This document shows, one piece after another, positions 6,486 to 24,899 of a stretch of 25,166 bases of DNA. Below the pieces are notes generated by a model, which was given only the letters and a program-made list of their open reading frames with translations, did not search any database and was not told the origin of the DNA. The stretch is from positions 1 through 25,166 of the forward strand of contig CAZPWM010000041.1 of assembly GCA_964590575.1 (NCBI GenBank), given 5' to 3'. Numbering within the stretch: the first letter of the stretch is position 1; each line of letters starts with the position of its first letter. Made by a program: the position numbers and the translations under genes. The DNA comes from an uncultured archaeon. Lineage in GTDB: Archaea > Asgardarchaeota > Thorarchaeia > Thorarchaeales > Thorarchaeaceae.

Positions 6486-8381
6486 ATGCGGCAGGACTAT
6501 AGTTATCAAGCGGTTAATGATGAAGCCGTGAGGTCAACAAAGTCCATCAAGAAAAGTACAGGATCATATTACACACCTGGACATCTTGCTAACTTGATAA
6601 CGCAGGACTCTATTTTCAAGTGGCTTTCAGAAAGAGTATCTTCCACAATAAGGAATATTGAAGATCTAGATGGCTTGAGTTCAAATAGGCGAAACACACT
6701 CCTCAATAATATCAAATGTGTTACTATTCTTGATCCAGCAGTTGGAGAGGGAGTATTTCTTCTCGCTGCAGCTAATTGGCTTAGAAAGATCCGAATCAGC
6801 CTTGGTGATAATGATGGAGAAAAGAACCTAAGACAATCAATTGTAGCAGATTGTCTATTCGGTGTGGATTTAGCTCCGCACGCAATCATAACCTGCAAGA
6901 ATAAGATAAGCAACTGGATCAACAAAGAAGAAAAATCAAACACCAAAATGAATATTCGATATGGAAATAGCCTCGTTGGATATGTTAAAATCCCGACCAG
7001 CATAGAAACCTTATCGATGAATGAGTTGGATAATTCTCTCCTTCGTACAATTCATCCACGTGACCCCAGAAAGATTTTGAACATCTATAATGCAGCGAAA
7101 CCATTTCATTGGGGATTGGAATTTCAAAACGTATTTCGTAGCAAGAATTCGGGATTCGATATTGTAATTGGTAACCCACCCTATGGAAGTATCCTTGGGT
7201 CAATAGAGAGACCATTCATTACAACACTGTATCCATACAATGTTGGAGGGGGAAAAAGTGGTACATGGAATAGTGCCGCACATTTTCTTGTCAGGGCATC
7301 ATCTTTGATGAAAGAAGGAGCACAACTTGGTTTTCTTGTGCCTAACAGTTTCTTAAGAGTGAAGCAGTTTTCAAAGATAAGGAACTTTCTTCTGAATCAC
7401 CTCAATCTCTGGAAGATTGTAGATGAAGGGAATCCTTTCGAAGAAGTCACACTTGAGATGGTTAGCTTGTACTGTGGAATGACTCAAGGTGATGGTGAGC
7501 ACAAAATCATTGTGGAGTCAAGAAGGTATAACCTTGAACAATCTAATGTTCTGTCTTCACGGGTGCTCGAGGAAAGTAGAGTCTTTTCAATCTATCATGA
7601 TCATATCTTTTCAAAGATTCTCGAGAGAGGTCAGAAAGGTCTTCTTGTGGCAGGAAGAGGGCGTGATATCCCAAAAGAACATGTGAGGAAGAAACTGACA
7701 TCCAAATTTAAGACACCATACATTACGAGTGGAAGAAGTGTTCAGAGGTATGGTCTGAAAACCCAACATGTGTACTACACTGATGATTGGTTTTGGCAAG
7801 ATTCTGCGTTGAAGGACTCGTTTGAAAACGAATTACTTGTAGCCACAAAGAACTACAGATACCCAAGGTGTATCATGAAACCAAGAGGGATGATACACGG
7901 TGGAGGTATTGTTAGGATCACACCCCTCGACTACAATGTCGACCTCCGCACTCTTGGTTTAATTCTGAATTCGCGACTTGTAAAACAGATATCCATTAGG
8001 TATCTAACTAACTATTCTCAACTCACTTGTTGTCTGAACACCGGCATCATGGAAGATTTACCACTTGTACTACCTAAGCATCCTCGTGTGTACAGAAACC
8101 TCTTTGACACATTAAGTCAACTTCATTCCGACCAGAAGGAAAAGACTAACAAAGAGTATATTCCAGCTCTCGACAGATTAGCGGATGCACTCGTTTATTC
8201 GTTATATTTTGGAGATGACGAATTCGAACAACAAGTAAGCAAAGGTAGGAATGACCTTTCCGTAACTGCTCAAGAACCAGATATTATCAAGATGGTTGAT
8301 GAAATCTTGGAAAATCCCGTTGTTAAAGAACTAGAACATCTTTGTAATGTTCCTGCAACAAGAAAGAGTCGTAGATACTGA
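6486..8381 (+). CDS. N6-adenine DNA methyltransferase, gamma class (TaqI/Eco57I methylase-like), with C-terminal target-recognition region
   Basis: GSYYTP (motif X), ILDPAVGEGVFL (motif I), LFGVD, GNSL, FHWGLEF and FDIVIGNPPY (motif IV). Start uncertain; GTG at 6528 is an alternative. Confidence 0.9.
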   Translation: MRQDYSYQAVNDEAVRSTKSIKKSTGSYYTPGHLANLITQDSIFKWLSERVSSTIRNIEDLDGLSSNRRNTLLNNIKCVTILDPAVGEGVFLLAAANWLRKIRISLGDNDGEKNLRQSIVADCLFGVDLAPHAIITCKNKISNWINKEEKSNTKMNIRYGNSLVGYVKIPTSIETLSMNELDNSLLRTIHPRDPRKILNIYNAAKPFHWGLEFQNVFRSKNSGFDIVIGNPPYGSILGSIERPFITTLYPYNVGGGKSGTWNSAAHFLVRASSLMKEGAQLGFLVPNSFLRVKQFSKIRNFLLNHLNLWKIVDEGNPFEEVTLEMVSLYCGMTQGDGEHKIIVESRRYNLEQSNVLSSRVLEESRVFSIYHDHIFSKILERGQKGLLVAGRGRDIPKEHVRKKLTSKFKTPYITSGRSVQRYGLKTQHVYYTDDWFWQDSALKDSFENELLVATKNYRYPRCIMKPRGMIHGGGIVRITPLDYNVDLRTLGLILNSRLVKQISIRYLTNYSQLTCCLNTGIMEDLPLVLPKHPRVYRNLFDTLSQLHSDQKEKTNKEYIPALDRLADALVYSLYFGDDEFEQQVSKGRNDLSVTAQEPDIIKMVDEILENPVVKELEHLCNVPATRKSRRY

Positions 8382-15019: not shown

Positions 15020-15179
15020 ATGACCTCAAGTTTTCTACACAAGACTTAAAGTAGGATATGCCAGACTCGCTATTGGTGACAAATGTGATGTGTGGTGGAT
15101 TTGTTCATCTATATGAATACCCTTAGTGTAACCTCCGCCAACTCTGCCTGTTACCTGAATGAATTCTGGAGGAAGTTCA

Positions 15180-16493
15180 ATGAGTGAGATGCGAACAGTC
15201 AGGGGTATGAGAGACCTCATGGGTCCGGAGATGCAAATCAAGAATTACCTCATGGCTACTGCAGTTGAGGTTTTTGAGCTGTATGGATACGAGCCATTGG
15301 ACTCTCCTGTGATGGAGCTCTGGGAAACGTTATCAGCAAAGGGCGGAGAAGAGGTAGAAGCTGAAACATTCAAATTCACGGATAAAGGAGAACGAGAGGT
15401 TGGTTTAAGGTTTGATCTTACTGTACCTCTTGCGCGTATTGTTGCGACGAACCCAAACCTACCAAAGCCGTTCAAACGATACGCAGTCGGAAAAGCATGG
15501 AGGTATGATAGACCTCAAGCTGGTCGATATCGAGAGTTTGAACAAGCAGATGTTGATATCATTGGAACTACTAACCCAGCAGCTGATGCAGAAGTAGTAC
15601 TAGTTGCTCTTGAGTTCCTCAAGCGAGTTCTTGGTTCAGAGTATATGATTCGTATCAACAACCGCAAGGCCCTTCGCGGAATGACAGAGAAAGCGGGTGT
15701 TTCTGACGACCTGGCTTTCGAGTGCTTCCGAGCAATCGACAAACTCGATAAGATTGGCAAAGAAGGTGTTATGAAAGAGCTTGGTGAACGGGGCATCGGA
15801 AATAAACAGAGTAATTTCTTGATAGACGCGATAACTATCAAGGGTAGCGGGACAAAGACACTTGAGAAGTTCAAGGACCTCTTAGAAGGATCAAAGATTG
15901 GGTTCGAAGGTGTTGAGGAACTCAGTCTCATGGCAGAAATATTCGAGGAGAGCAGAGTGTCGGAGTTGATTGAATTCGACATGTCACTTGCCCGTGGTCT
16001 CGACTACTATACGGGGCCCGTTTTTGAAGGAAGATATCTCGGAGAACCAGCAGTAGGCTCTATTCTTGGAGGTGGTCGATATGATCGTCTCATCGAGAAG
16101 TTCGGAGGCCAGTCAACACCCGCTACAGGAATCTCACTGGGTATCGGACGGTTAATTGAGATTGTTCTAGCAAGAGGGGGTGGAAAGAATCTTGAAAAAC
16201 AGCTTGATGTTTTTGTAGCCCCAATCAAACGTCCTATGCTAAGGTTTGCTACTGCAATACAGACCGAGCTTGTTCAAGCTGGTCTGTCCTGTGAAGTGGA
16301 TTTGATGGACAGACCTCTGAAGAAACTGTTGCAACAGGCAGACTTGAAAAATGCGAAATTCACAATCATCGTTGGGGAACGTGATATTGTCAAAGGGGAG
16401 GTCAGCGTGCGAGATATGGAATCAAAAAAGACTGAGCAAGTCAAAACTGATCTTTTGTTGGAGTATTTCCTCAAAACACTTAGGAAACCCTAG
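15180..16493 (+). CDS. hisS: Histidine--tRNA ligase
   Basis: RGMRD, LRFDLTVPLAR, RYDRPQAGRYREFEQ, LARGLDYYTG, GGGRYD and the C-terminal anticodon domain. ATG at 15180 follows GGAGG (ORF track starts at 15159). Confidence 0.97.
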   Translation: MSEMRTVRGMRDLMGPEMQIKNYLMATAVEVFELYGYEPLDSPVMELWETLSAKGGEEVEAETFKFTDKGEREVGLRFDLTVPLARIVATNPNLPKPFKRYAVGKAWRYDRPQAGRYREFEQADVDIIGTTNPAADAEVVLVALEFLKRVLGSEYMIRINNRKALRGMTEKAGVSDDLAFECFRAIDKLDKIGKEGVMKELGERGIGNKQSNFLIDAITIKGSGTKTLEKFKDLLEGSKIGFEGVEELSLMAEIFEESRVSELIEFDMSLARGLDYYTGPVFEGRYLGEPAVGSILGGGRYDRLIEKFGGQSTPATGISLGIGRLIEIVLARGGGKNLEKQLDVFVAPIKRPMLRFATAIQTELVQAGLSCEVDLMDRPLKKLLQQADLKNAKFTIIVGERDIVKGEVSVRDMESKKTEQVKTDLLLEYFLKTLRKP

Positions 16494-16584
16494 CTCATAA
16501 CTTAGATGAGGTTTCTTCAGCATTCCAATTCGTGGAGACCAAAGGCTTTTCTCACAGGATTGCCATGATATCAAAGGGATTACA

Positions 16585-17424
16585 ATGGTGCGTATGCCAG
16601 TAGTTGCAGGACGGTTCTATGAAGGGAGGGATGACTTACTCCAAGAGCGTCTTAGGAGCTGCTTTTTAGGTTCCCTTGGGCCGGGTCGGCTTCCAGAAGG
16701 AGAACCAGGAACTTCAAGGACACTTAAGGCAGTCATTGCTCCCCATGCAGGTTACATGTACTCAGGTATGCCAGCGGCTCATACTTATCTCAAAATTTAC
16801 GAAGATGGAATACCAGACCACATCGTTCTGCTTGGACCAAATCACACTGGAATGGGTGCAAGACTCGCAGTTTGCAATGACGATTGGCAGACACCTCTCG
16901 GTATCGCGCAGTTCGATAAAATTCTTGGAGCTGCAATTGTTGAGGAAGATGAGTACGCTTCGAATGACTGTATCGCACACAGCAATGAGCATTCGCTCGA
17001 GGTGCAAGTGCCTTTCCTTCAATACACTTTCGGACCAGGTGTGAGTTTCGTGCCCATATGCGTTTCAGACCAGTCATATACAGTCTGTGAATCAATAGGG
17101 AAGACCTTAGCCAAGTTTGCAGATGAGATGGATATTCTAGTTATTGCAAGTTCGGATTTCACTCACTTTGAATCAGCTGAAAGTGCAAGGAAGAAAGATA
17201 ATCAGGCCATGGAGTATCTTGAGTTCTTAGATCCAGAAGGATTCCTTTCTTTTGTGCAGGGACATAGGATTAGTATATGTGGAGCAGGACCAATCGCTGC
17301 AGCAATGGTTTTTGCTAAGGAGAGAGGTGCAACTCAATTTAATGTTCTGAAGTACACAAACTCCGGAGATATTACAAAAGACAACTCTAGCGTTGTTGCA
17401 TATGTATCAGCCACTATGGTTTAG
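16585..17424 (+). CDS. MEMO1 family protein (AmmeMemoRadiSam system protein B)
   Basis: RMPVVAGRFY, APHAGYMYSG, LGPNHTG, WQTPLG, EHSLEVQVPFLQ, ASSDFTH, ICGAGP, YTNSGD and VVAY. Confidence 0.93.
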   Translation: MVRMPVVAGRFYEGRDDLLQERLRSCFLGSLGPGRLPEGEPGTSRTLKAVIAPHAGYMYSGMPAAHTYLKIYEDGIPDHIVLLGPNHTGMGARLAVCNDDWQTPLGIAQFDKILGAAIVEEDEYASNDCIAHSNEHSLEVQVPFLQYTFGPGVSFVPICVSDQSYTVCESIGKTLAKFADEMDILVIASSDFTHFESAESARKKDNQAMEYLEFLDPEGFLSFVQGHRISICGAGPIAAAMVFAKERGATQFNVLKYTNSGDITKDNSSVVAYVSATMV

Positions 17425-17434
17425 AAGGTGGAGG

Positions 17435-18727
17435 TCAATCGTTCACAATATTCTCAAAACCTTCGACTTCAGATTCAGGGGTGACAACGCAGCTGTCTTT
17501 ACCTGCATCATTAGGTAGGAAAACCGCAGCCACACCCCCAGCTACTGAAACCCCACCAGCAATGAGAAGACTCAATGCAGCGGAACCTGTGTCATCAAAA
17601 ATCTTACCACCCATGAGTGGACTGACTGCATATGCGCTATTGCTTACAGCACCAAACACACCCATCAACACCCCGTATGCGCTAGGATCTGTCACATCCG
17701 CGATTAATGCCTGAATTGCTGGGCCCCTCATCGACATACCAATTGAGAGTACGATACCTGCAATCAGTAGATCAATTGTATTACCAGCAAAAATGAACAT
17801 TATCATTGATAGAGCTCCAATCATAGCTCCAATCACTATCAGCCATTTACGACCTTTAATATCAGATAGTTTTCCAAACACTACGCTTCCAATCATCATC
17901 GTGATGCCTATGACTCCGAAGAATATGCCTATCTCATATGGCTCAACACCGATGTTGATAACTGCATCAAGCATAAACGCGACTTCGAGTACACCCATTG
18001 CAAACATGTTTGCAAACATCGCGATTCCGAGAATCCCATAGCATAGTCGCGCTCTTGATATTACCTCTCGAATGGGTAACTTTGGTATGGAACCTCTGAT
18101 TGTTTTCCTTGCTGGTTCTTGAACAAGAACGTAGAGAAAGACCATCGTAATGAGTGTAGCAAATGCCGCTAGAATGAACGGCATTCGAATTCCAAGAAAT
18201 TGGGCTAAAAATCCGCCAAGCGCGGGACCAACAATAAAACCCACCATGTTACCCATGCTGAGATAACCCATGGCAGTGCCTCTGTTCTTTGTAGTGGTGA
18301 CATCGGACACAAATGCATTGGCTGCTGGAAAGAAACCAGCTGAAACAGCCCCTTCAAGTGCACGTGCTGCGACCATCACTATTACATCCTGTGCATAAGC
18401 ATACACGATATTCGAGAATGCAAATCCGAGGAGTGAAACAATCAGGACAGGTTTTCGTCCCACTCTGTCTGAAAGACCACCCAAAGGTCCAGCTAGAATA
18501 ATTCGCGCAATGGCAAAAGAAGCCGCAAGCACGCCTAATTCAATGCCAGCCATACCTAGAGAAGAAATGTAATAGGGAAAAATTGGTGTGACAAGACCAA
18601 AGCCAATCTGCAGAATACTTAGTGAAATAGCTAGCATCCAAACTTGATACATCCCGCCTGGTTTTTCATCAAACGCTGTATCCAGAACATCACCAACGGG
18701 GATAGTCACTTCTGCTTCAGGGTCCAT
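17435..18727 (-). CDS. MFS transporter (DHA1/TetA-like, 12 TM)
   Basis: Motif A twice (GGLSDRVGRK, GKLSDIKGRK), ARALEG, RGTAMG and GPALGG. Confidence 0.92.
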   Translation of the reverse strand: MDPEAEVTIPVGDVLDTAFDEKPGGMYQVWMLAISLSILQIGFGLVTPIFPYYISSLGMAGIELGVLAASFAIARIILAGPLGGLSDRVGRKPVLIVSLLGFAFSNIVYAYAQDVIVMVAARALEGAVSAGFFPAANAFVSDVTTTKNRGTAMGYLSMGNMVGFIVGPALGGFLAQFLGIRMPFILAAFATLITMVFLYVLVQEPARKTIRGSIPKLPIREVISRARLCYGILGIAMFANMFAMGVLEVAFMLDAVINIGVEPYEIGIFFGVIGITMMIGSVVFGKLSDIKGRKWLIVIGAMIGALSMIMFIFAGNTIDLLIAGIVLSIGMSMRGPAIQALIADVTDPSAYGVLMGVFGAVSNSAYAVSPLMGGKIFDDTGSAALSLLIAGGVSVAGGVAAVFLPNDAGKDSCVVTPESEVEGFENIVND

Positions 18728-18789
18728 CTAGAAACACTCCACTGTTCGCAAGACACATGCCTTTTCAAGTTTCGTAATTCGGATGAAAT

Positions 18790-19299
18790 TTATTTGTCAA
18801 TAATGACTTTCCGGACTCCTTTGATATCAGCAAGTGATTCTATAACTCTACCAGGCAATGGTTCTTCGGTAATCACCTTCAAACAGGGATTCTGATATAT
18901 TGCGACATCTTCAGCAAGTACCTGACGTATTGGTATTCCATAACCTGCAATCATCGATGTGACTTCTGAAAGAATTCCAGGGGAACCAGGCGAATCTACA
19001 ATAATAGTCACCACTCCATAACCAAGTACTCTGCTAACTCTCTCAAGAGAAGGTCCAGCTGGTCTTAATAATGAGAAGAACTCACATAGTGCTTCATTCT
19101 CGCAAATGTCTTCAGTGGTCGCTCGAACAGTACGCCGATCAATATCTAGAGCTTTACCAAGTGATTTCAAGGGGATTCTAATATCACCACACTTTATTAC
19201 ACCTGGACCCTCGATATGAAATCCGTGTCGGACAATCGCCTCAGCCACCTTCAGTCTTTGCGGAGACTCACTGAGGTAGTCAACAATAGTACGCCACAT
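18790..19299 (-). CDS. Archaeal regulator of amino-acid metabolism with C-terminal ACT domain (COG2150-like)
   Basis: N-terminal P.RLKVA...GF, IP..SLGKALDIDRRTV (HTH-like), and ACT domain PGILSEVTSMIA..GIPIRQ. Confidence 0.85.
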   Translation of the reverse strand: MWRTIVDYLSESPQRLKVAEAIVRHGFHIEGPGVIKCGDIRIPLKSLGKALDIDRRTVRATTEDICENEALCEFFSLLRPAGPSLERVSRVLGYGVVTIIVDSPGSPGILSEVTSMIAGYGIPIRQVLAEDVAIYQNPCLKVITEEPLPGRVIESLADIKGVRKVIIDK

Positions 19300-19317
19300 G
19301 GAAGAACACCTTGTCCG

Positions 19318-19860
19318 TTATTCAGCTAACTCTTTTTCCATAAGCAATTCATCTATTAAGCCCTTAGGCATGTTGAAGTGGTTCTTTCTAATTCCTACGA
19401 CACGGTATCCTAGGGATTTGTAGAGGTTTTTGGCCACCTCATTGTCATTGAAAGTACTCAAGATTATCTTACTATAATCCTTGGTAAATGCAATGGATTC
19501 TCCCGATGTCATGAGACCTCTACCAATACCGATATTTCGACAGTCCTTCCTTACAATTAGCCCTAGTTTCGCAACATGTTGAGAAGCATTCCATTCTTCG
19601 GGTTGGAGTGATAGATGTCCACCATATTCATTATCAACGTGAGCTACAAGAAGAACTTCTCTAGTTGTACGAGTTCGTTGAATCCAGTTCATCCAATCTG
19701 CAACGTGAGAATTGGGTGTAAAAGTTGGAAGCCACATATGTTCCTCAACTACCATTTTGAAGCCAGCATGCAAGTGTTCGGCATCGTCAACAATGGCTTC
19801 TCGAACTGTGATTGCGCGACCGTCTTTAGCTGTATACTCCCAAACTTTCAAGTGTTGCAC
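19318..19860 (-). CDS. GNAT N-acetyltransferase (YhhY/AaaT-like)
   Basis: VREA..DDA, HVAKLGLIVRKDCRNIGIG (AcCoA motif A), N..A.NLYKSLGY and DELLME. GTG start bounded by an upstream in-frame TAG. Confidence 0.88.
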   Translation of the reverse strand: MQHLKVWEYTAKDGRAITVREAIVDDAEHLHAGFKMVVEEHMWLPTFTPNSHVADWMNWIQRTRTTREVLLVAHVDNEYGGHLSLQPEEWNASQHVAKLGLIVRKDCRNIGIGRGLMTSGESIAFTKDYSKIILSTFNDNEVAKNLYKSLGYRVVGIRKNHFNMPKGLIDELLMEKELAE

Positions 19861-19915
19861 CGACAGCAGGTCATTCAGAGGCTACAAAAAGCGTTGTGGT
19901 CTGACTAAAAACCAC

Positions 19916-20746
19916 TCACAACTCTGGGGTTAACATTGGAATGTCAACTCTTGCACCAGGTCTTGGGAGTGAGCACGTATAGACACGATCAATCTCGATG
20001 TAACCAGTCGATGCATCAATTTCTCTGAAGTAACCTTTTAGCTGAAAAGCAGCAGGTTCAAGAGTCACAAGTGAAATAGCGACGCGTGTGCCATCTCTGA
20101 GGGCGAAACCACGACGCGTTTCCTCTCCACGTTTAACAACAATCCTGTTTGAAGAAACAGGAATCATGCCAAATTCAGGAAATGCTACGGGATATCCATC
20201 CTCTGAAATGTATGCAATGATTTTTACCGCGGCCATTTGTGAGAACCTTTGTTGCACGTTGATGGGCATATTACCCTCAACGGTCTCTTCAGTCTTAACT
20301 TTTCGACCAGCAATCTTTGCTTTGAGAAATGCAGATAGAACGCTTAGTTTTGAGATTGAATACTTTTGACTTGACCAAATAGCCTCTGCGACGCCTGCGC
20401 CTCGAGCATTCGTATATTGATTATAACGAAAGAGAGGAGTCTGCGCTATGAATTCGTAGATTTCATCATTGCGATGGTAGGATTCAAAATCAGCCTTAAT
20501 CAACCAACTATCTAGGTTTGTTGCAAAGACCAAGATTGACATCTGTGAGTTCCCATTGTTGACGTTCTTTCGACTCTTGAAAGTCATGAAGTCACCGTAG
20601 ACTAAGGTGTTACCTTCATATACAGTCCACGATAAAACGGGTACAACATTGGGTTCTCCTTCAGAATCCTTCGTTGCCATGAATTTAGGTACTTCGAATT
20701 CTTTCATTATATCAACCAGTTCTTGGTTCAATCTAAAATCATCCAC
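19916..20746 (-). CDS. Tandem pyridoxamine-5'-phosphate-oxidase-like (FMN-binding split barrel) protein
   Basis: Two similar halves: KFMATKDSEGEPNVVP...KSRKNV and KIIAYISEDGYPVAFP...VAISL...AFQLKG. GTG start with GGAGGT SD; overlaps the activase stop by 8 nt. Confidence 0.75.
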   Translation of the reverse strand: MDDFRLNQELVDIMKEFEVPKFMATKDSEGEPNVVPVLSWTVYEGNTLVYGDFMTFKSRKNVNNGNSQMSILVFATNLDSWLIKADFESYHRNDEIYEFIAQTPLFRYNQYTNARGAGVAEAIWSSQKYSISKLSVLSAFLKAKIAGRKVKTEETVEGNMPINVQQRFSQMAAVKIIAYISEDGYPVAFPEFGMIPVSSNRIVVKRGEETRRGFALRDGTRVAISLVTLEPAAFQLKGYFREIDASTGYIEIDRVYTCSLPRPGARVDIPMLTPEL

Positions 20747-21713
20747 AGGTCCGGACCTCCTCGTCTTCTGTCTGATTCTTTGTCTTTGAGTTCTTGGTCA
20801 TTCCTGACCACACTACATTCGAGAGTCCCTCGTCACGCGCAACTTGTGCCAAATGCTCCATAGTTTCCTTGTCAACTAGGTCATAGTCTTTGAGGGGATA
20901 TTCTAAGTCGAATAATGCATACTTGTCAATACACATTCTATTGAATGCGAGAAGATCATACCGTTCTGTCGTCGGTATGTTCTCGATTATGAATCGTGCA
21001 ATTGCGCGGATGTTTTCCTCATCATCAGTGTGCTCAGGAATAATAGGAGTACGTATCCAGACTGGTATCTTACTCTCAGCAATGATTAGAGCATTCCTGA
21101 GAACGGTGTCTAAAGGGACACCTGTATATTGCTCATGTTTGTTGGGATGCATGACCTTCAAATCATAGAGGACTAGGTCAACATAGGGGAGTAAATCTTT
21201 CAGTACACTCTCACTGCAGTAGCCGCAAGTATCAAGCGCTACATGGATACCTTCTGTCTGTAGCCCTTTTGCGATCTCCAATGCAAACTTAGCCTGAAAG
21301 GTCGCTTCACCTCCAGAGAGGGTAACACCACCCTTTGAGGTCTCAAAAAATACCTTATCGCGAAGTAGCTCCTGTACTAAATCCTCTGAGGACCATACTT
21401 TGCCCATTACTTTGACTGCACCTGTAGGGCATGCATCCTCACATATTCCACATACCACGCATTTCTCTCTGTCAATTTTGAGACCATCAGGCGTCATTTC
21501 AAGTGCTTCCTCAGGACATGCACGAACGCAAGCCTGATCACCGATACACTTCACCGCATACCAAATCACTATTGGTTTGGGATCAATTGTTTCAATATTA
21601 TGACACCATATACACGACATTGGACAGCCTTTGAAGAAAACTGTGGTCCGAATCCCAGGTCCATCCTCTGTTGAACACCGTTGAATATTTGTGATAATTC
21701 CTGATATGGTCAT
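20739..21713 (-). CDS. Glycyl-radical enzyme activating enzyme (radical SAM) with inserted ferredoxin-like domain
   Basis: EDGPGIRTTVFFKGCPMSCIWCHN (CxxxCxxC), CIGDQACVRACP and CVVCGICEDACP, GGVTLSGGE, DTCG and YDLK. Confidence 0.95.
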   Translation of the reverse strand: MTISGIITNIQRCSTEDGPGIRTTVFFKGCPMSCIWCHNIETIDPKPIVIWYAVKCIGDQACVRACPEEALEMTPDGLKIDREKCVVCGICEDACPTGAVKVMGKVWSSEDLVQELLRDKVFFETSKGGVTLSGGEATFQAKFALEIAKGLQTEGIHVALDTCGYCSESVLKDLLPYVDLVLYDLKVMHPNKHEQYTGVPLDTVLRNALIIAESKIPVWIRTPIIPEHTDDEENIRAIARFIIENIPTTERYDLLAFNRMCIDKYALFDLEYPLKDYDLVDKETMEHLAQVARDEGLSNVVWSGMTKNSKTKNQTEDEEVRTCG

Positions 21714-24124
21714 CAGAGTGAATGCTCCGTTCGAGTAATGATTTCCTCTTGTAGTTCTCTTCCGACTTGAGTAAAGAATGCATTGTATCCTGTCACACGA
21801 ACCATAAGATTCGAGTAGGCGTCAGGATTCTTCTGAGCATCACGAAGTGTCTTGGCATCTATGACGTTAATCTGAAGAGCAGTCCCGCCGACTTCATTAT
21901 ACGCTCTAAGAAGTGCAGCAAGTTTCTCTATATGTTCAGGAGTCTGCACCATTGAGGGACTAATAGTTATCGTGTGAGATGCTCCGTTAGGTATGGTTTC
22001 AAGATCTAGTTTTCCAACTGAGCGTATTGAGGCTGTTGGTCCTGTGGAGTCCATTCCCTGAACTGCTCCAACGCCACCAGAAAGAAATTCTCCACGACGT
22101 CGTCCATCAGGTGTTGCTCCAGTTAGAGGAGCCAGAGGCACATAGTAATTCCAAGACAAGTAACCAGCTCTGTATTTTCGTCCTGTAAATGGATTCTCAT
22201 GCTTGAATGCCTCCTCAGCCCAGAAGACAGAGAGTTCACGGGCAATTTCGTCAACATAATCATCATCGTTTCCAAATTTAGGAGCTTTGGATCTTAGTAA
22301 TTGACGAAGTTCATCATGACCTTCGTAGTTTGATTCTATTGCAGATAGAAGGTCTTTCATTTCAACCCGTTTATCTTCATAGACTATCTTCTTTACTGCA
22401 GCTACTGAGTCAGCAAGAGTCGCAATGCCCATTCCCTCTAGTGTATTGAAGTTCCAGGTTGTTCCACCTTCGTTGACATCCTTTCCATTTACAGCACAGT
22501 CATCCATGAGTGCACTCAGATACGGGACTGGTTGGTATTTGGCTCGTAGCGTATCCGCCATGTTTCCAGCTGTAACAAGTTGTACAACGAGATCTTTAAG
22601 CTGCGACTTAACCGCATTCATGAAATCGTTGAATGTCTTGAAGGTTAATGGGTGACCAGTTTTAGGACCGAGCTGTACACCAGATGCTGTATCCTTGCCA
22701 TCATTCAATGCAAGTTCAACAGCTTTCACTAGATTGATGTTTACGTCAACAGTATCTGAACGATCATTCCCTTGCATAGTATTCTCTAAACAACCGACGA
22801 TACCATAGTCCCAAGCATCCTCTCGAGGTACTCCTTGCCAGACAAGACCATCTATACTATGCTCGTCAAAGTTCATCAGAAACGGAGAGCCTTGAGCCCT
22901 TGAAACTATCTCAGCAACGCGAATCAGGAAATCGTGAGGAGTGTTTTTGTGAAGGCGTATGTTTGGCTTTGGTTCTAACAGGTTCATCTCTTCAATGACT
23001 TCTAGAGCTAACCAAGTTAGGTCATTAGTTAGATCTTCACCATTGGGGCCACAGCCACTCAATGTGATGAGCTGGCCAAAACTAGAGTTGATGCCTTGAT
23101 TGATACCAAGACGACCTTGGTAATCGTAGACATAATTGTGTTTTATCCAATAGCATTGAAGCAGCTCCTTTGCTTCTTCGCGAGTGAGTCTACCTTCCTC
23201 AATATCACTCTTGTAGAATGGATACATATATTGGTCCCAACGACCATGTGATAATCCCGCTCCGGGATAGGATTCAGCAGCCATTACAAGCATGTGGACT
23301 ATCCAGAGAGATTGCAGAGCCTCCCAAAAAGTCGTAGGCGGTTCCCATGGGACTAATCTGCATATCTCTGAGATTTTTAGAAGCTCAACCCTTCGGCTTG
23401 TATTATTCGCTTCTTCGGCTAGTTCTTCAGCTTTCTTTGAATATCGGAGACCAATATCTCGTGCAGTTTCGCAGCTTAGAATTAGTGATTCAATAAACTC
23501 TCGATGTTCAATGGTGAGGGCTCCTTTTAGCATCTCAGTGTATTCCTCAGCCAAACCCCTCATTCCAACTTTCATCACTTTTGCATAATTTGGTATGAGA
23601 TGCCCAGGAACACATGAGGCGGTCCCGACCCCCAGTTCGTTGAGTCGGCTTGTTTCTTTGAACCACTTATCCATCGCTCTATTTCTCGCAGTAGTTTCAG
23701 ATTTGTTGAGAGATCTAGATAGAGCAGTATTGAAATTGAATCCTACAATAAGCTCTTCATCCAGGATTATAGTAGGCATATATTTGGTCATGACCTCATG
23801 GAAAAATATTGCTCGCCTCTTTGCCAGACCATGTTTCCAGTATCCTTCAGGAAGATTAACTTTTACAGCCATTGCCTTGAGTGTTTGGTCAATCGAAGGT
23901 ATAAATGGATAGAGTGCAGGCTCATTTGCCCAGTCATGAACAGAGTAAACTTCGTCCCATGCTGTACCTGTAGTGAATGAGTATGGTTCGTTTGTCTCTT
24001 CGCGTTCGTAAAATGAGTAAAAATGATCTCTAAGCTTCTGTACCCGGTTGGAGAGTGTGTCAGAGGGAGCCCATATTTTGATTAAGGATCTATTGTTCTC
24101 GTCAACGGTCAAGGGGAGCACCAC
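21713..24124 (-). CDS. Glycyl radical enzyme (PFL superfamily, single-Cys GCLE type), substrate unknown
   Basis: Gly loop LMVRVTGYNAFF (RVTGY at 21799-21785), Cys loop IVGCLE (GCLE at 22795-22784), TFWEALQ, GRWDQY, PKFGNDD, GATPDGR and LQINV. Start GTG 24124, or TTG 24112 after a GGTGG SD. Stop overlaps the activase ATG (TGATG). Confidence 0.95.
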   Translation of the reverse strand: MVLPLTVDENNRSLIKIWAPSDTLSNRVQKLRDHFYSFYEREETNEPYSFTTGTAWDEVYSVHDWANEPALYPFIPSIDQTLKAMAVKVNLPEGYWKHGLAKRRAIFFHEVMTKYMPTIILDEELIVGFNFNTALSRSLNKSETTARNRAMDKWFKETSRLNELGVGTASCVPGHLIPNYAKVMKVGMRGLAEEYTEMLKGALTIEHREFIESLILSCETARDIGLRYSKKAEELAEEANNTSRRVELLKISEICRLVPWEPPTTFWEALQSLWIVHMLVMAAESYPGAGLSHGRWDQYMYPFYKSDIEEGRLTREEAKELLQCYWIKHNYVYDYQGRLGINQGINSSFGQLITLSGCGPNGEDLTNDLTWLALEVIEEMNLLEPKPNIRLHKNTPHDFLIRVAEIVSRAQGSPFLMNFDEHSIDGLVWQGVPREDAWDYGIVGCLENTMQGNDRSDTVDVNINLVKAVELALNDGKDTASGVQLGPKTGHPLTFKTFNDFMNAVKSQLKDLVVQLVTAGNMADTLRAKYQPVPYLSALMDDCAVNGKDVNEGGTTWNFNTLEGMGIATLADSVAAVKKIVYEDKRVEMKDLLSAIESNYEGHDELRQLLRSKAPKFGNDDDYVDEIARELSVFWAEEAFKHENPFTGRKYRAGYLSWNYYVPLAPLTGATPDGRRRGEFLSGGVGAVQGMDSTGPTASIRSVGKLDLETIPNGASHTITISPSMVQTPEHIEKLAALLRAYNEVGGTALQINVIDAKTLRDAQKNPDAYSNLMVRVTGYNAFFTQVGRELQEEIITRTEHSL

Positions 24125-24243
24125 CAGACTAAATTCTGGGCTGAGCGTTCACTCTAATAAGATTACATGTTCTGATAAAATGTGTAGCAATTCATTCAGC
24201 AGGTTGATATGCTTTAGTATCATAGAAGAGTTGGTGGGGTTTC

Positions 24244-24471
24244 TTGTCACAAAATAATGAAAGAGTTCTGTTCTACTGCTCTATTGGTATTGCACTACTG
24301 ATGTGTGCATTTACATGTGCTTTCTATTTTGGAACAAATTCTACAAATGGGATTTTCACATTGAGTGCATTGATACTCATGCTGGTTTTCTCATTAATGG
24401 GAGGATATCTAGTAAGCTATGGCTACGTCTTGAGTAATACTCAACCTGGTGAGAATTCTTCCATATCTTGA
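24244..24471 (+). CDS. Small 2-TM membrane protein, paralog A
   Basis: TTG start after GGTGGGG SD. GIALLMCAFTCA and VFSLMGGYLVSYG align with the next ORF. Confidence 0.65.
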   Translation: MSQNNERVLFYCSIGIALLMCAFTCAFYFGTNSTNGIFTLSALILMLVFSLMGGYLVSYGYVLSNTQPGENSSIS

Positions 24472-24626
24472 AGAAGTTGATTCGATTATTGTTTCAGACG
24501 GAACTGCAAAACTAATTTCTTGAATCAATACTTCATCCTAAAAACACTACATGTTACGATATGATGTGTTTGAATTTGTAAGCAAGTTCATAAGATTCTG
24601 AATCAGGGGAATGTTGGTGGGGTTTC

Positions 24627-24899
24627 ATGTCAGAGAAACCAACATTAGATTTTATCGAAAACAAGGATGGACCAAGAACATGTGCTGCTGGAATGGTATT
24701 ATTGATGCTCGCTCTAGCATGTTCGATTGCAGTTGCTATAAGCCCACTTACGCCAAGCAGCTATCTGCAACCCAGTGTTGCAATGGTAGGAGTGATACTC
24801 CTGATTCTTTTCGCGCTCGGTGGAGGATATTTAGCAAGTAGTGGACTCCTCTTCATTCTTCGTGATTCTCGAAGAACAGATAGTAACGCCCAAGAGTAA
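24627..24899 (+). CDS. Small 2-TM membrane protein, paralog B
   Basis: ATG after the identical SD region. GMVLLMLALACS and LFALGGGYLASSG. Confidence 0.7.
   Translation: MSEKPTLDFIENKDGPRTCAAGMVLLMLALACSIAVAISPLTPSSYLQPSVAMVGVILLILFALGGGYLASSGLLFILRDSRRTDSNAQE

Follow-up and report, generated by a model that had tools for sequence, protein, structure and literature searches.

What reaction does a glycyl radical enzyme (GRE) catalyse, and what does a split-barrel protein contribute to it, when both are encoded together in an Asgard archaeon? The question is raised by the window, that is, the whole 25,166-nt stretch of contig CAZPWM010000041.1 from a Thorarchaeaceae archaeon that was analysed here, in which a GRE, its activating radical S-adenosylmethionine (radical-SAM) enzyme and a tandem split-barrel partner similar to PNPOx and HupZ occupy positions 19916–24124. 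We are highly confident that this GRE belongs to a new clade with an obligate partner. The balance tips slightly towards the three genes forming one operon of an uncharacterised, PFL2-like GRE clade. The accessory fold is new to the GRE superfamily, in an operon that otherwise looks ordinary.

In the sections of a 2026 review drawn on here (PMC13450708), all characterised PFL-like GREs are bacterial and whole clades, archaeal ones above all, are unassigned; Archaeoglobus fulgidus PFL2, the one structurally studied archaeal GRE, is described there as having a debated function. As to literature with Asgard GREs as its subject, a paper on Hermodarchaeota (PMC8163825) and its preprint were the only items found.

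The glycyl radical enzyme

All three genes lie on the minus strand. The GRE (21713..24124, 803 amino acids) carries a Cys loop of the CXE type (C445/E447), a His (H175) after strand β1, an RVTG779Y loop and a clade-specific N-terminal region of ~170 residues. It is followed by the activase (20739..21713, 324 amino acids), with a C30-x3-C34-x2-C37 motif and a two-cluster ferredoxin-like insert at residues ~54–101, and by the partner (19916..20746, 276 amino acids), whose N half spans residues ~1–140 and whose C half ~150–276. The original prediction had described three genes with overlapping stop and start codons, and coordinates and overlaps were all found as claimed. The GRE stop and the activase start have one base in common within TGATG at 21715–21711 (CTC TGA TG), and the partner starts with GTG at 20746, overlapping the activase stop by 8 nt and preceded by GGAGGT 8 nt upstream of the GTG. 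In most homologues the GRE starts four codons later and has 799 amino acids, so that the TTG at 24112 may be the real start. The database entry of the partner begins at Met14 (263 amino acids); the longer form of 276 amino acids is backed by homologues.

The enzyme shows the hallmarks of the GRE superfamily, i.e. a PFL-like barrel, the RVTG779Y loop, GC445 and an adjoining activase. The Pfam profile PFL-like (PF02901) matched with 500 bits over profile positions 102–646 only and Gly_radical (PF01228) with 97 bits, and the activase scored 314 bits on NCBIfam TIGR02494 against a cut-off of 174. The Cys loop reads V-G-C445-L-E447-N. It thus has the single active Cys that had been proposed for it instead of the CC pair of true pyruvate formate-lyase (PFL), and C445-L-E447 is invariant in all 37 clade sequences compared. 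Database names of the homologues run as 'pyruvate formate lyase family protein', but a true PFL was rejected, with G444-C445 standing where E. coli PflB has C-C and a score of 133 against a cut-off of 994 for the PFL family TIGR01255. Every other curated NCBIfam cut-off tested was likewise missed: TIGR01774 (547 against 678), HypD NF043068 (499 against 1100), HpsG (470 against 1000), HpfG (424 against 1000), CutC (423 against 1050), the PflD type (404 against 1109), indoleacetate decarboxylase (337 against 1100) and HPAD (275 against 1150). Four further clade members, from Jord- and Heimdallarchaeota, Desulfobacteraceae and Chloroflexia, also stayed under all the curated cut-offs.

Among solved structures, HMMER scored glycerol dehydratase of C. 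butyricum (1r8w, 435 bits) and propanediol dehydratase (5i2a/5i2g, 9rco; 406 bits) highest, followed by HypD (6vxc, 401 bits), A. fulgidus PFL2 (2f3o, 401 bits) and CutC (391 bits); MasD (253 bits), TutD (202 bits) and PflB (114 bits) were more distant. Foldseek with the GRE model (pLDDT 84.7) placed eliminases first and nearly equidistant (TM ~0.82, 28–32% identity), with structures of benzylsuccinate synthase (BSS) and MASS at ranks 47–49 (22–24% identity). Glycerol and propanediol dehydratase, the best matches in both sequence and fold (TM 0.82, 30% identity), have in common with the window GRE the CXE loop, the His after β1 (H164 corresponding to H175), an RVxG loop and an activase with a ferredoxin-like insert. 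They differ from it in the first ~170 residues, which cannot be aligned, in H281/S282/D447, which are A/G/V here, and in their microcompartment and dehydrogenase context. HypD is the nearest characterised family among the genome relatives (24 of the 40 outgroup loci described below, 35–40% identity) and has the CXE loop and the conserved His as well; it is set apart by the NF043068 score, by six named residues of which none is kept, by its position on the tree and by loci that lack the partner. A. fulgidus PFL2, an archaeal CXE-type GRE with 32% identity, could be aligned only from residue 174.

A scan of a genome collection gave 80 loci, which fall into 40 clade loci (L001–L039, L044) and 40 outgroup loci. 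The clade loci match the whole GRE from about residue 14 at 49–90% identity and come from Thor-, Jord-, Frey- and Heimdallarchaeota, Desulfobacteraceae, Chloroflexota and other bacteria. The outgroup reaches 33–40% identity, nearly always from residue ~120–230 onwards only, and consists by cut-off of 24 HypD equivalogs, 9 loci that pass the generic PFL2 cut-off only and 7 that pass none. In a tree of 66 rows (quick search, LG+G4; 16 near-duplicate Thor rows and fragments below 700 amino acids left out), the 21 clade rows form one branch (SH-aLRT 100, stem 0.59), to which neither the 25 HypD rows (100) nor E. coli PflD, YbiW and PflB belong. A search of 1.84 billion representative clusters with the first 170 residues alone yielded only 108 at E ≤ 0.001, mainly fragments; the full-length proteins have 785–844 amino acids. 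Conserved residues of this N-terminal region include W18, R27, R32, R41, N45 and D57. The closest homologues of both the GRE and the partner are named Thorarchaeota, which identifies the host as an Asgard archaeon, and clade members are known from Asgard archaea, Chloroflexota, Desulfobacterales and Actinomycetota. The GRE therefore clusters with no characterised class, having its own clade, failing the cut-offs and lacking the pocket residues of glycerol dehydratase and HypD. Of the suggested new GRE class in an archaeon, the separate clade stood (SH-aLRT 100, all curated cut-offs failed); it is not specific to archaea, as it includes bacteria. One clade locus, L038:8001-9341 on a Thorarchaeota-like contig, holds only the first 418 GRE residues followed by unrelated sequence, with neither activase nor partner, and is either a broken gene or an assembly join.

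The pocket positions were assigned by HMMER alignment only, without model coordinates, and their conservation was read over 37 clade sequences. C433, E435 and H164 of glycerol dehydratase align to C445, E447 and H175. In contrast, H281, S282 and D447, which we take to be the substrate residues of glycerol dehydratase, align to A289, G290 and V459 and are not kept. Six residues of HypD are named for catalysis or substrate binding in the cited part of PMC7077986, and all are replaced (D278→A289, S334→N346, D339→Q351, F340→L352, Y450→N462, T645→W658). The roles of H164 and E435 in glycerol dehydratase are given in PMC13450708. Both A289/G290/V459 and the replacements at the HypD-aligned positions are fixed or nearly so across the clade, as are E284-S-Y-P-G, F349-G-Q-L-x-T, N448-T449, T458-V-D-V-N462 and G654-Y-L-S-W-N659 and, flanking the radical glycine, the unusual T778 and N781. 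The earlier impression that the likely pocket segments differ from those of the characterised enzymes is borne out by these replacements. The residue set that the alignment assigns to the substrate pocket is invariant or nearly so in the clade, polar, uncharged and unlike that of any studied class.

Linkage of the partner to the enzyme

All open reading frames (ORFs) of at least 60 amino acids in the 80 loci were searched with a partner-domain profile. It matched directly downstream of the GRE in 37 of the 40 clade loci; the 40 outgroup loci gave no match. In two of the three clade loci without a match (L029 and L035) the contig ends at or inside the GRE, and the third is the GRE fragment L038. 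A reverse search from the single-domain partner alignment returned 38 loci, of which 34 with new identifiers were examined (5 of these are contigs already met). A clade GRE stands directly upstream of the partner in 29 of the 34, one locus has its partner at the end of a contig, and in the other four no GRE lies within 9 kb.

The same association was found in a sample of 201 Asgard genomes (partner at E ≤ 1e-10, GRE at E ≤ 1e-200). The partner occurs in 69 genomes and the GRE in 76. Of the 201 genomes, 63 carry both, 6 have a partner without a GRE, 13 a GRE without a partner, and 119 have neither gene; among the good-quality genomes the numbers are 41/85 for the partner and 44/85 for the GRE. 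Top-tier GREs (at least 1269 bits) occur in 37 genomes, and in 33 of these the partner is on the same contig and strand, 1–1.4 kb downstream. Of the remaining ones, one has the pair on two contigs, two are closed genomes with the genes 19–24 kb apart and one has no partner match. Second-tier GREs of other Asgard families (~920–975 bits, 835–850 amino acids) often lie beside a more distant partner of ~297 amino acids. The proposal that the link to the PNPOx-like gene be looked for in homologous GREs elsewhere was thus answered in the affirmative, both by the clade and outgroup loci and by the best Asgard GREs.

In the closed Asgard genomes L098 (an Atabeyarchaeum chromosome), G012 and G023 a single-domain partner and a clade GRE are 19–24 kb apart on opposite strands, which shows that adjacency is not obligatory.

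The split-barrel partner

An AlphaFold2 model of the partner (pLDDT 86, pTM 0.85, 31-row alignment) consists of two split barrels. In Foldseek each barrel matches 2htd, HupZ and the FMN-binding protein of D. vulgaris Miyazaki with target-normalised TM scores of 0.74–0.79 (FMN, flavin mononucleotide). All six single-domain orthologues tested exceed the cut-off of the Pfam profile PNPOx_N (PF01243) with scores of 30.5–44.1, and a Jordarchaeales tandem reaches 29.3. In the Protein Atlas, clusters of tandem size are either unlabelled or labelled PNPOx. HupZ is the closest solved sequence relative, with E = 1e-11 over the full single-domain profile. Of the originally predicted tandem flavin-binding split-barrel protein, the two split barrels are thus present in the model; flavin binding is putative, and HupZ binds heme.

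The partner exists in two forms. Single domains of 136–152 amino acids are found in Frey-type archaea, Chloroflexota, Desulfobacterales and another bacterial group, and fused pairs of 263–276 amino acids in Thor-, Jord- and Heimdallarchaeota and in Actinomycetota (Geothermincolaceae-like). Both halves match the single-domain profile in all 31 tandems tested, with medians of 71.7 bits for the N half and 38.8 bits for the C half. The N half keeps the motifs GxPN and K-[ST]-[RK]-K-N, to which we ascribe a presumable phosphate-binding role. The C half has lost both and keeps the C-terminal VY..S.P.PG.R tail. The partner has one nearly invariant Cys only. When the two forms were mapped onto a HypD-rooted GRE tree with 46 rows, those with a tandem partner (22 rows) made up a single clade (SH-aLRT 100) nested among 17 single-domain rows, which corresponds to one change of form. 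This single change indicates that GRE and partner share one line of descent and were passed on as a pair between archaea and bacteria.

With respect to the ligand, CofD, CofH and ALAD were not found in searches of this 91%-complete genome, and an archaeal riboflavin kinase is present. FMN would accordingly be the most available of the three candidate ligands. Biosynthesis genes give weak guidance to a ligand, the genome being incomplete and salvage possible, and we put the chance that FMN is the ligand at about even.

The cited part of the 2026 review (PMC13450708) names small subunits for HPAD, BSS and MASS only, all HiPIP- or rubredoxin-like. They act on the solubility of the GRE, on control of the glycyl radical domain or on gating, and they resemble the partner in being small proteins encoded with a GRE. 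Unlike these proteins with their Cys ligands, the partner is a split barrel, and its binding to the GRE is putative. Nor does a split-barrel partner feature in the glycerol and propanediol dehydratase systems as described in the sections of this review cited here, and the words 'pyridoxamine' and 'FMN' do not occur in it. Among solved structures, the partner domain is most closely related to HupZ of Group A Streptococcus (5esc) and the FMN-binding protein of D. vulgaris Miyazaki. Both are homodimers of minimal split barrels, and neither has a link to a GRE, whereas the window partner is GRE-linked and has its barrel duplicated and fused. The one published PNPOx-like gene found in a GRE operon is that for LssP, an expressed protein of unassigned role at the end of a limonenylsuccinate synthase operon (PMC12583861). 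Its homology to the partner is conjectural, and its operon differs from the window trio in being long and in containing a succinate synthase with Fe–S small subunits. Another study dealing with both GREs and PNPOx has its PNPOx-family gene in a cluster for a UbiD decarboxylase and not beside GRE genes, and no literature pairing 'glycyl radical' with 'split barrel' was found.

Reaction and role of the partner

The identities of the genes, their translational coupling, the separateness of the clade and the conserved link to the partner have been shown above; what follows is a proposal. In the mechanism we propose, the activase, a radical-SAM enzyme with two auxiliary Fe–S clusters, would place the radical on Gly779, from where it would pass to Cys445. 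The Cys445 thiyl would then take a hydrogen from the carbon bearing, or next to, a hydroxyl group held by Glu447, and the neighbouring group would leave with the assistance of His175, as in the GRE 1,2-eliminases and isomerases, for which the cited sections of PMC13450708 describe the CXE motif. We consider such CXE-type elimination or isomerisation chemistry probable and favour a polar substrate. The partner would be a dedicated accessory of the GRE, not of the activase. It would work as a dimer or, in the window, as a fused pseudo-dimer, and would most likely bind FMN, either as a bound subunit or as a redox helper. That it is directed at the GRE is the reading we mildly favour.

A complex prediction was run with the GRE of L026 (790 amino acids) and one single-domain partner (138 amino acids), the window pair (803 and 276 amino acids) exceeding 1000 residues. 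It gave scores of 0.03, 0.66 and 0.13, with the mark at 0.32, and carries no weight here in either direction.

Several observations weigh against this picture. The CXE motif is also present in the GRE decarboxylase HPAD (C503/E505, PMC13450708) and is hence necessary but not sufficient, being on its own no proof of elimination. The genes for CoA-transferases, ACAD proteins and enoyl-CoA hydratase near some relatives resemble succinate-adduct pathways. The partner of the window itself stays below the PNPOx_N cut-off (24.4 against 28.1), and HupZ binds heme, not flavin (PMC9237417). The four partner homologues without a GRE within 9 kb, one on the Atabeyarchaeum chromosome and three on Dehalococcoidales contigs, and the distance of 19–24 kb in the closed genomes G012 and G023 loosen the linkage, and the compared genomes are interrelated, so that the counts overstate independence. 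Finally, with one activase for three GREs in this genome and the partner coupled to it, the partner could serve activation.

With regard to the identity of the enzyme, two alternatives refer it to known classes. It could be a divergent isofunctional orthologue of a known eliminase, namely glycerol or propanediol dehydratase or HypD, or a true PFL as annotated, given that these eliminases are its best solved matches and that the database names point to the PFL family. We regard this as very improbable: the substrate residues of glycerol dehydratase and HypD are replaced by others that are fixed or nearly so in the clade, the Cys–Cys pair and the TIGR01255 score of a PFL are missing, and the same genome has a separate HypD-family gene above its cut-off. 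No more credible is an alkyl- or benzylsuccinate synthase (Ass/Bss) that activates hydrocarbons, as published for GREs of Hermodarchaeota and Thorarchaeota. That assignment was made on 29–33% identity and a single Cys (PMC8163825), and it could draw further on the genes for family III CoA-transferase, ACAD, enoyl-CoA hydratase and hydroxyacyl-CoA dehydrogenase near some relatives and on the PNPOx-like LssP gene in one succinate synthase operon (PMC12583861). However, TutD and MasD score 202–253 bits compared to 435 for glycerol dehydratase, the succinate synthase structures come at Foldseek ranks 47–49 only, and the loop is of the CXE type described for eliminases, isomerases and HPAD. The overlapping genes also leave no room for Fe–S small subunits, the small ORFs upstream are not Cys-rich, and the residues aligned to the pocket are polar, not hydrophobic. 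The fumarate-binding residue of BSS is Arg508 (PMC11194802); at the GRE position Cys+15, placed by spacing alone, there is an invariant D460. The labels PFL and alkyl-/benzylsuccinate synthase are unsupported for these genes, and so is the Ass/Bss label of PMC8163825 for this clade, the five genes of that paper having been placed neither in nor outside it.

The partner, too, admits other functions, and the three roles first suggested for it (redox conversion of the product, electron supply to the activase and protection of the radical) are all candidates. As a dedicated low-potential FMN electron carrier it would reduce the Fe–S clusters of the activase in the manner of a flavodoxin, without acting on the GRE. 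In favour of this, the partner gene begins within the end of the activase gene, both barrels match the small FMN-binding protein of D. vulgaris, the E. coli PFL activase uses flavodoxin (PMC13450708), and the operon activase is the only one above the TIGR02494 cut-off in a genome with three GREs. We nevertheless judge this function unlikely, as the partner tracks the GRE clade and not the activases: by tblastn each of the 24 HypD-equivalog outgroup loci has an activase, and none of these loci has the partner. Conversely, in at least nine places the partner comes immediately after the GRE and no activase lies between them or close by (L026, L030, L095, L096, G147, G040 (twice), G129, G071), and the genome has other flavodoxin-domain proteins (7 matches). 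A downstream flavoenzyme that reduces or oxidises what the GRE releases, a reactive carbonyl, imine or enoyl compound, in the way that P5C reductase follows on HypD, is another possibility to which we give little weight. The fold family includes reductases and oxidases (F420 reductase 3f7e, PNPOx-like entries), and other genes of C=C or acyl-CoA redox chemistry are found upstream in relatives (OYE-type, ACAD-like, enoyl-CoA hydratase in L107). Yet the barrels are minimal (136–152 amino acids) and have no nucleotide-binding domain, genes of F420 synthesis were not found in this genome, and the C half of the tandem has lost GxPN and K-T-K-K-N, a loss that fits an asymmetric binding protein better than an enzyme with two sites. 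Speculatively, and in our view doubtfully, the partner directed at the GRE might represent a new kind of GRE subunit, the first not of the Fe–S or rubredoxin type, which is required for turnover in that it passes an electron or proton to or from a radical intermediate. The reaction would then be a radical reaction with net redox change, a class of reaction so far undescribed for GREs.

Gene neighbourhood and host genome

No universal fourth gene was found across the loci compared, and recurrent neighbours are lineage-specific. Directly upstream and on the strand of the GRE are an ACAD-like gene in 10 Actinomycetota loci (103–262 bp away), a gene for an OYE plus Pyr_redox_2 reductase in three Frey-type loci (188–195 bp) and an enoyl-CoA hydratase gene in the Desulfobacterales locus L107 (38 bp), where genes for family III CoA-transferases are also close by. 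These neighbours and the Liv-type transporter genes around the trio in L126, taken with the polar pocket, suggest as the substrate a small carboxylic acid, hydroxylated or unsaturated, or the CoA ester of such an acid, which we offer as a lead only.

The Actinomycetota loci (L109–L117, L119, L122, L124, L127) show a four-gene unit of ACAD-like gene (358–382 amino acids), GRE, activase and tandem partner. In the two ACAD-like proteins scanned, only the N and middle domains were recognised. Further upstream, a B12-binding radical-SAM gene (L109, L122, L127) and an amine-oxidase-like FAD gene (L109) were seen. Since the Actinomycetota GREs group with the tandem-partner Asgard GREs on the tree, the whole unit appears to have been transferred between domains. 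On a deltaproteobacterial contig (L126:4366-12685) the trio lies within a Liv-type ABC transporter operon, with the binding protein upstream and LivHMGF (two permeases, two ATPases) downstream, and this stretch is flanked by transposase genes.

In the window, the partner stop is followed by a spacer of 55 nt (19861..19915, minus strand) with two T5 tracts, GGTTTTTAG and GCTTTTTGT. Judged from the bases themselves, these tracts may act as an archaeal oligo-T terminator that closes the three-gene unit. The 18 sequencing runs listed for the region 19300–24700 are all DNA. After the spacer come genes for a GNAT acetyltransferase, a TrpY-family-like regulator (157.6 against 180) and a DHA1-type MFS transporter on the same strand (17435–19860) and, beyond the MFS gene on the opposite strand (15159–17424), a Memo/AmmeMemoRadiSam B gene and hisS. 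The order from GNAT to hisS is kept in Thorarchaeota loci only and thus looks like vertical synteny. GNAT, regulator and MFS genes were rejected as members of the unit, being absent from the Jord, Heimdall, Frey and bacterial loci.

Upstream of the GRE, two plus-strand ORFs of 75 and 90 amino acids (24244–24471 and 24627–24899) resemble two-helix membrane proteins. They have a GGYL.S.G motif in common, may be paralogues and gave no Pfam match. Pfam scans of 25 ORFs of the window revealed no microcompartment shell protein, aldehyde or alcohol dehydrogenase or P5C reductase, and among the small ORFs upstream of the GRE, the only place where small ORFs were listed, none is Cys-rich. Within these limits the usual companion genes of GREs are absent, as first noted. 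Elsewhere in the window (6486–8381, plus strand) a protein of 631 amino acids with an Eco57I/MmeI-type DNA methyltransferase domain is encoded, with no obvious adjoining nuclease partner.

The three GREs of the host genome are located on contigs C11 (L081:1084-3450:-), C38 (L082:1087-3438:-) and C41 (the window). No activase gene lies beside those on C11 and C38. A single activase may serve all three GREs, or further ones may be encoded in the 9% of the genome that is missing. The GRE of L081 passes the HypD equivalog cut-off (1239.8 against 1100), yet its loop reads SGCVTISAFG, with Thr in place of the CXE glutamate, which is essential in C. difficile HypD; the nine other HypD-equivalog loci compared all have GCVE(T/S)G.

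Conclusion

The three genes represent a well-delimited and widespread GRE clade that has not been studied, together with a conserved accessory whose fold differs from those of the known small subunits. The unit is found in about half of the good-quality Asgard genomes sampled. This bears on published metabolic models of Asgard archaea in which these genes are read as PFL or as hydrocarbon-activating succinate synthases, neither of which labels passes the tests applied here. If the partner were indeed a redox subunit, the reaction would act on a sediment metabolite used by Asgard archaea, through a unit exchanged with anaerobic bacteria. Identification of the substrate would add a reaction to anaerobic carbon cycling in sediments and would reveal the part played by a flavoprotein-like partner of a radical enzyme.

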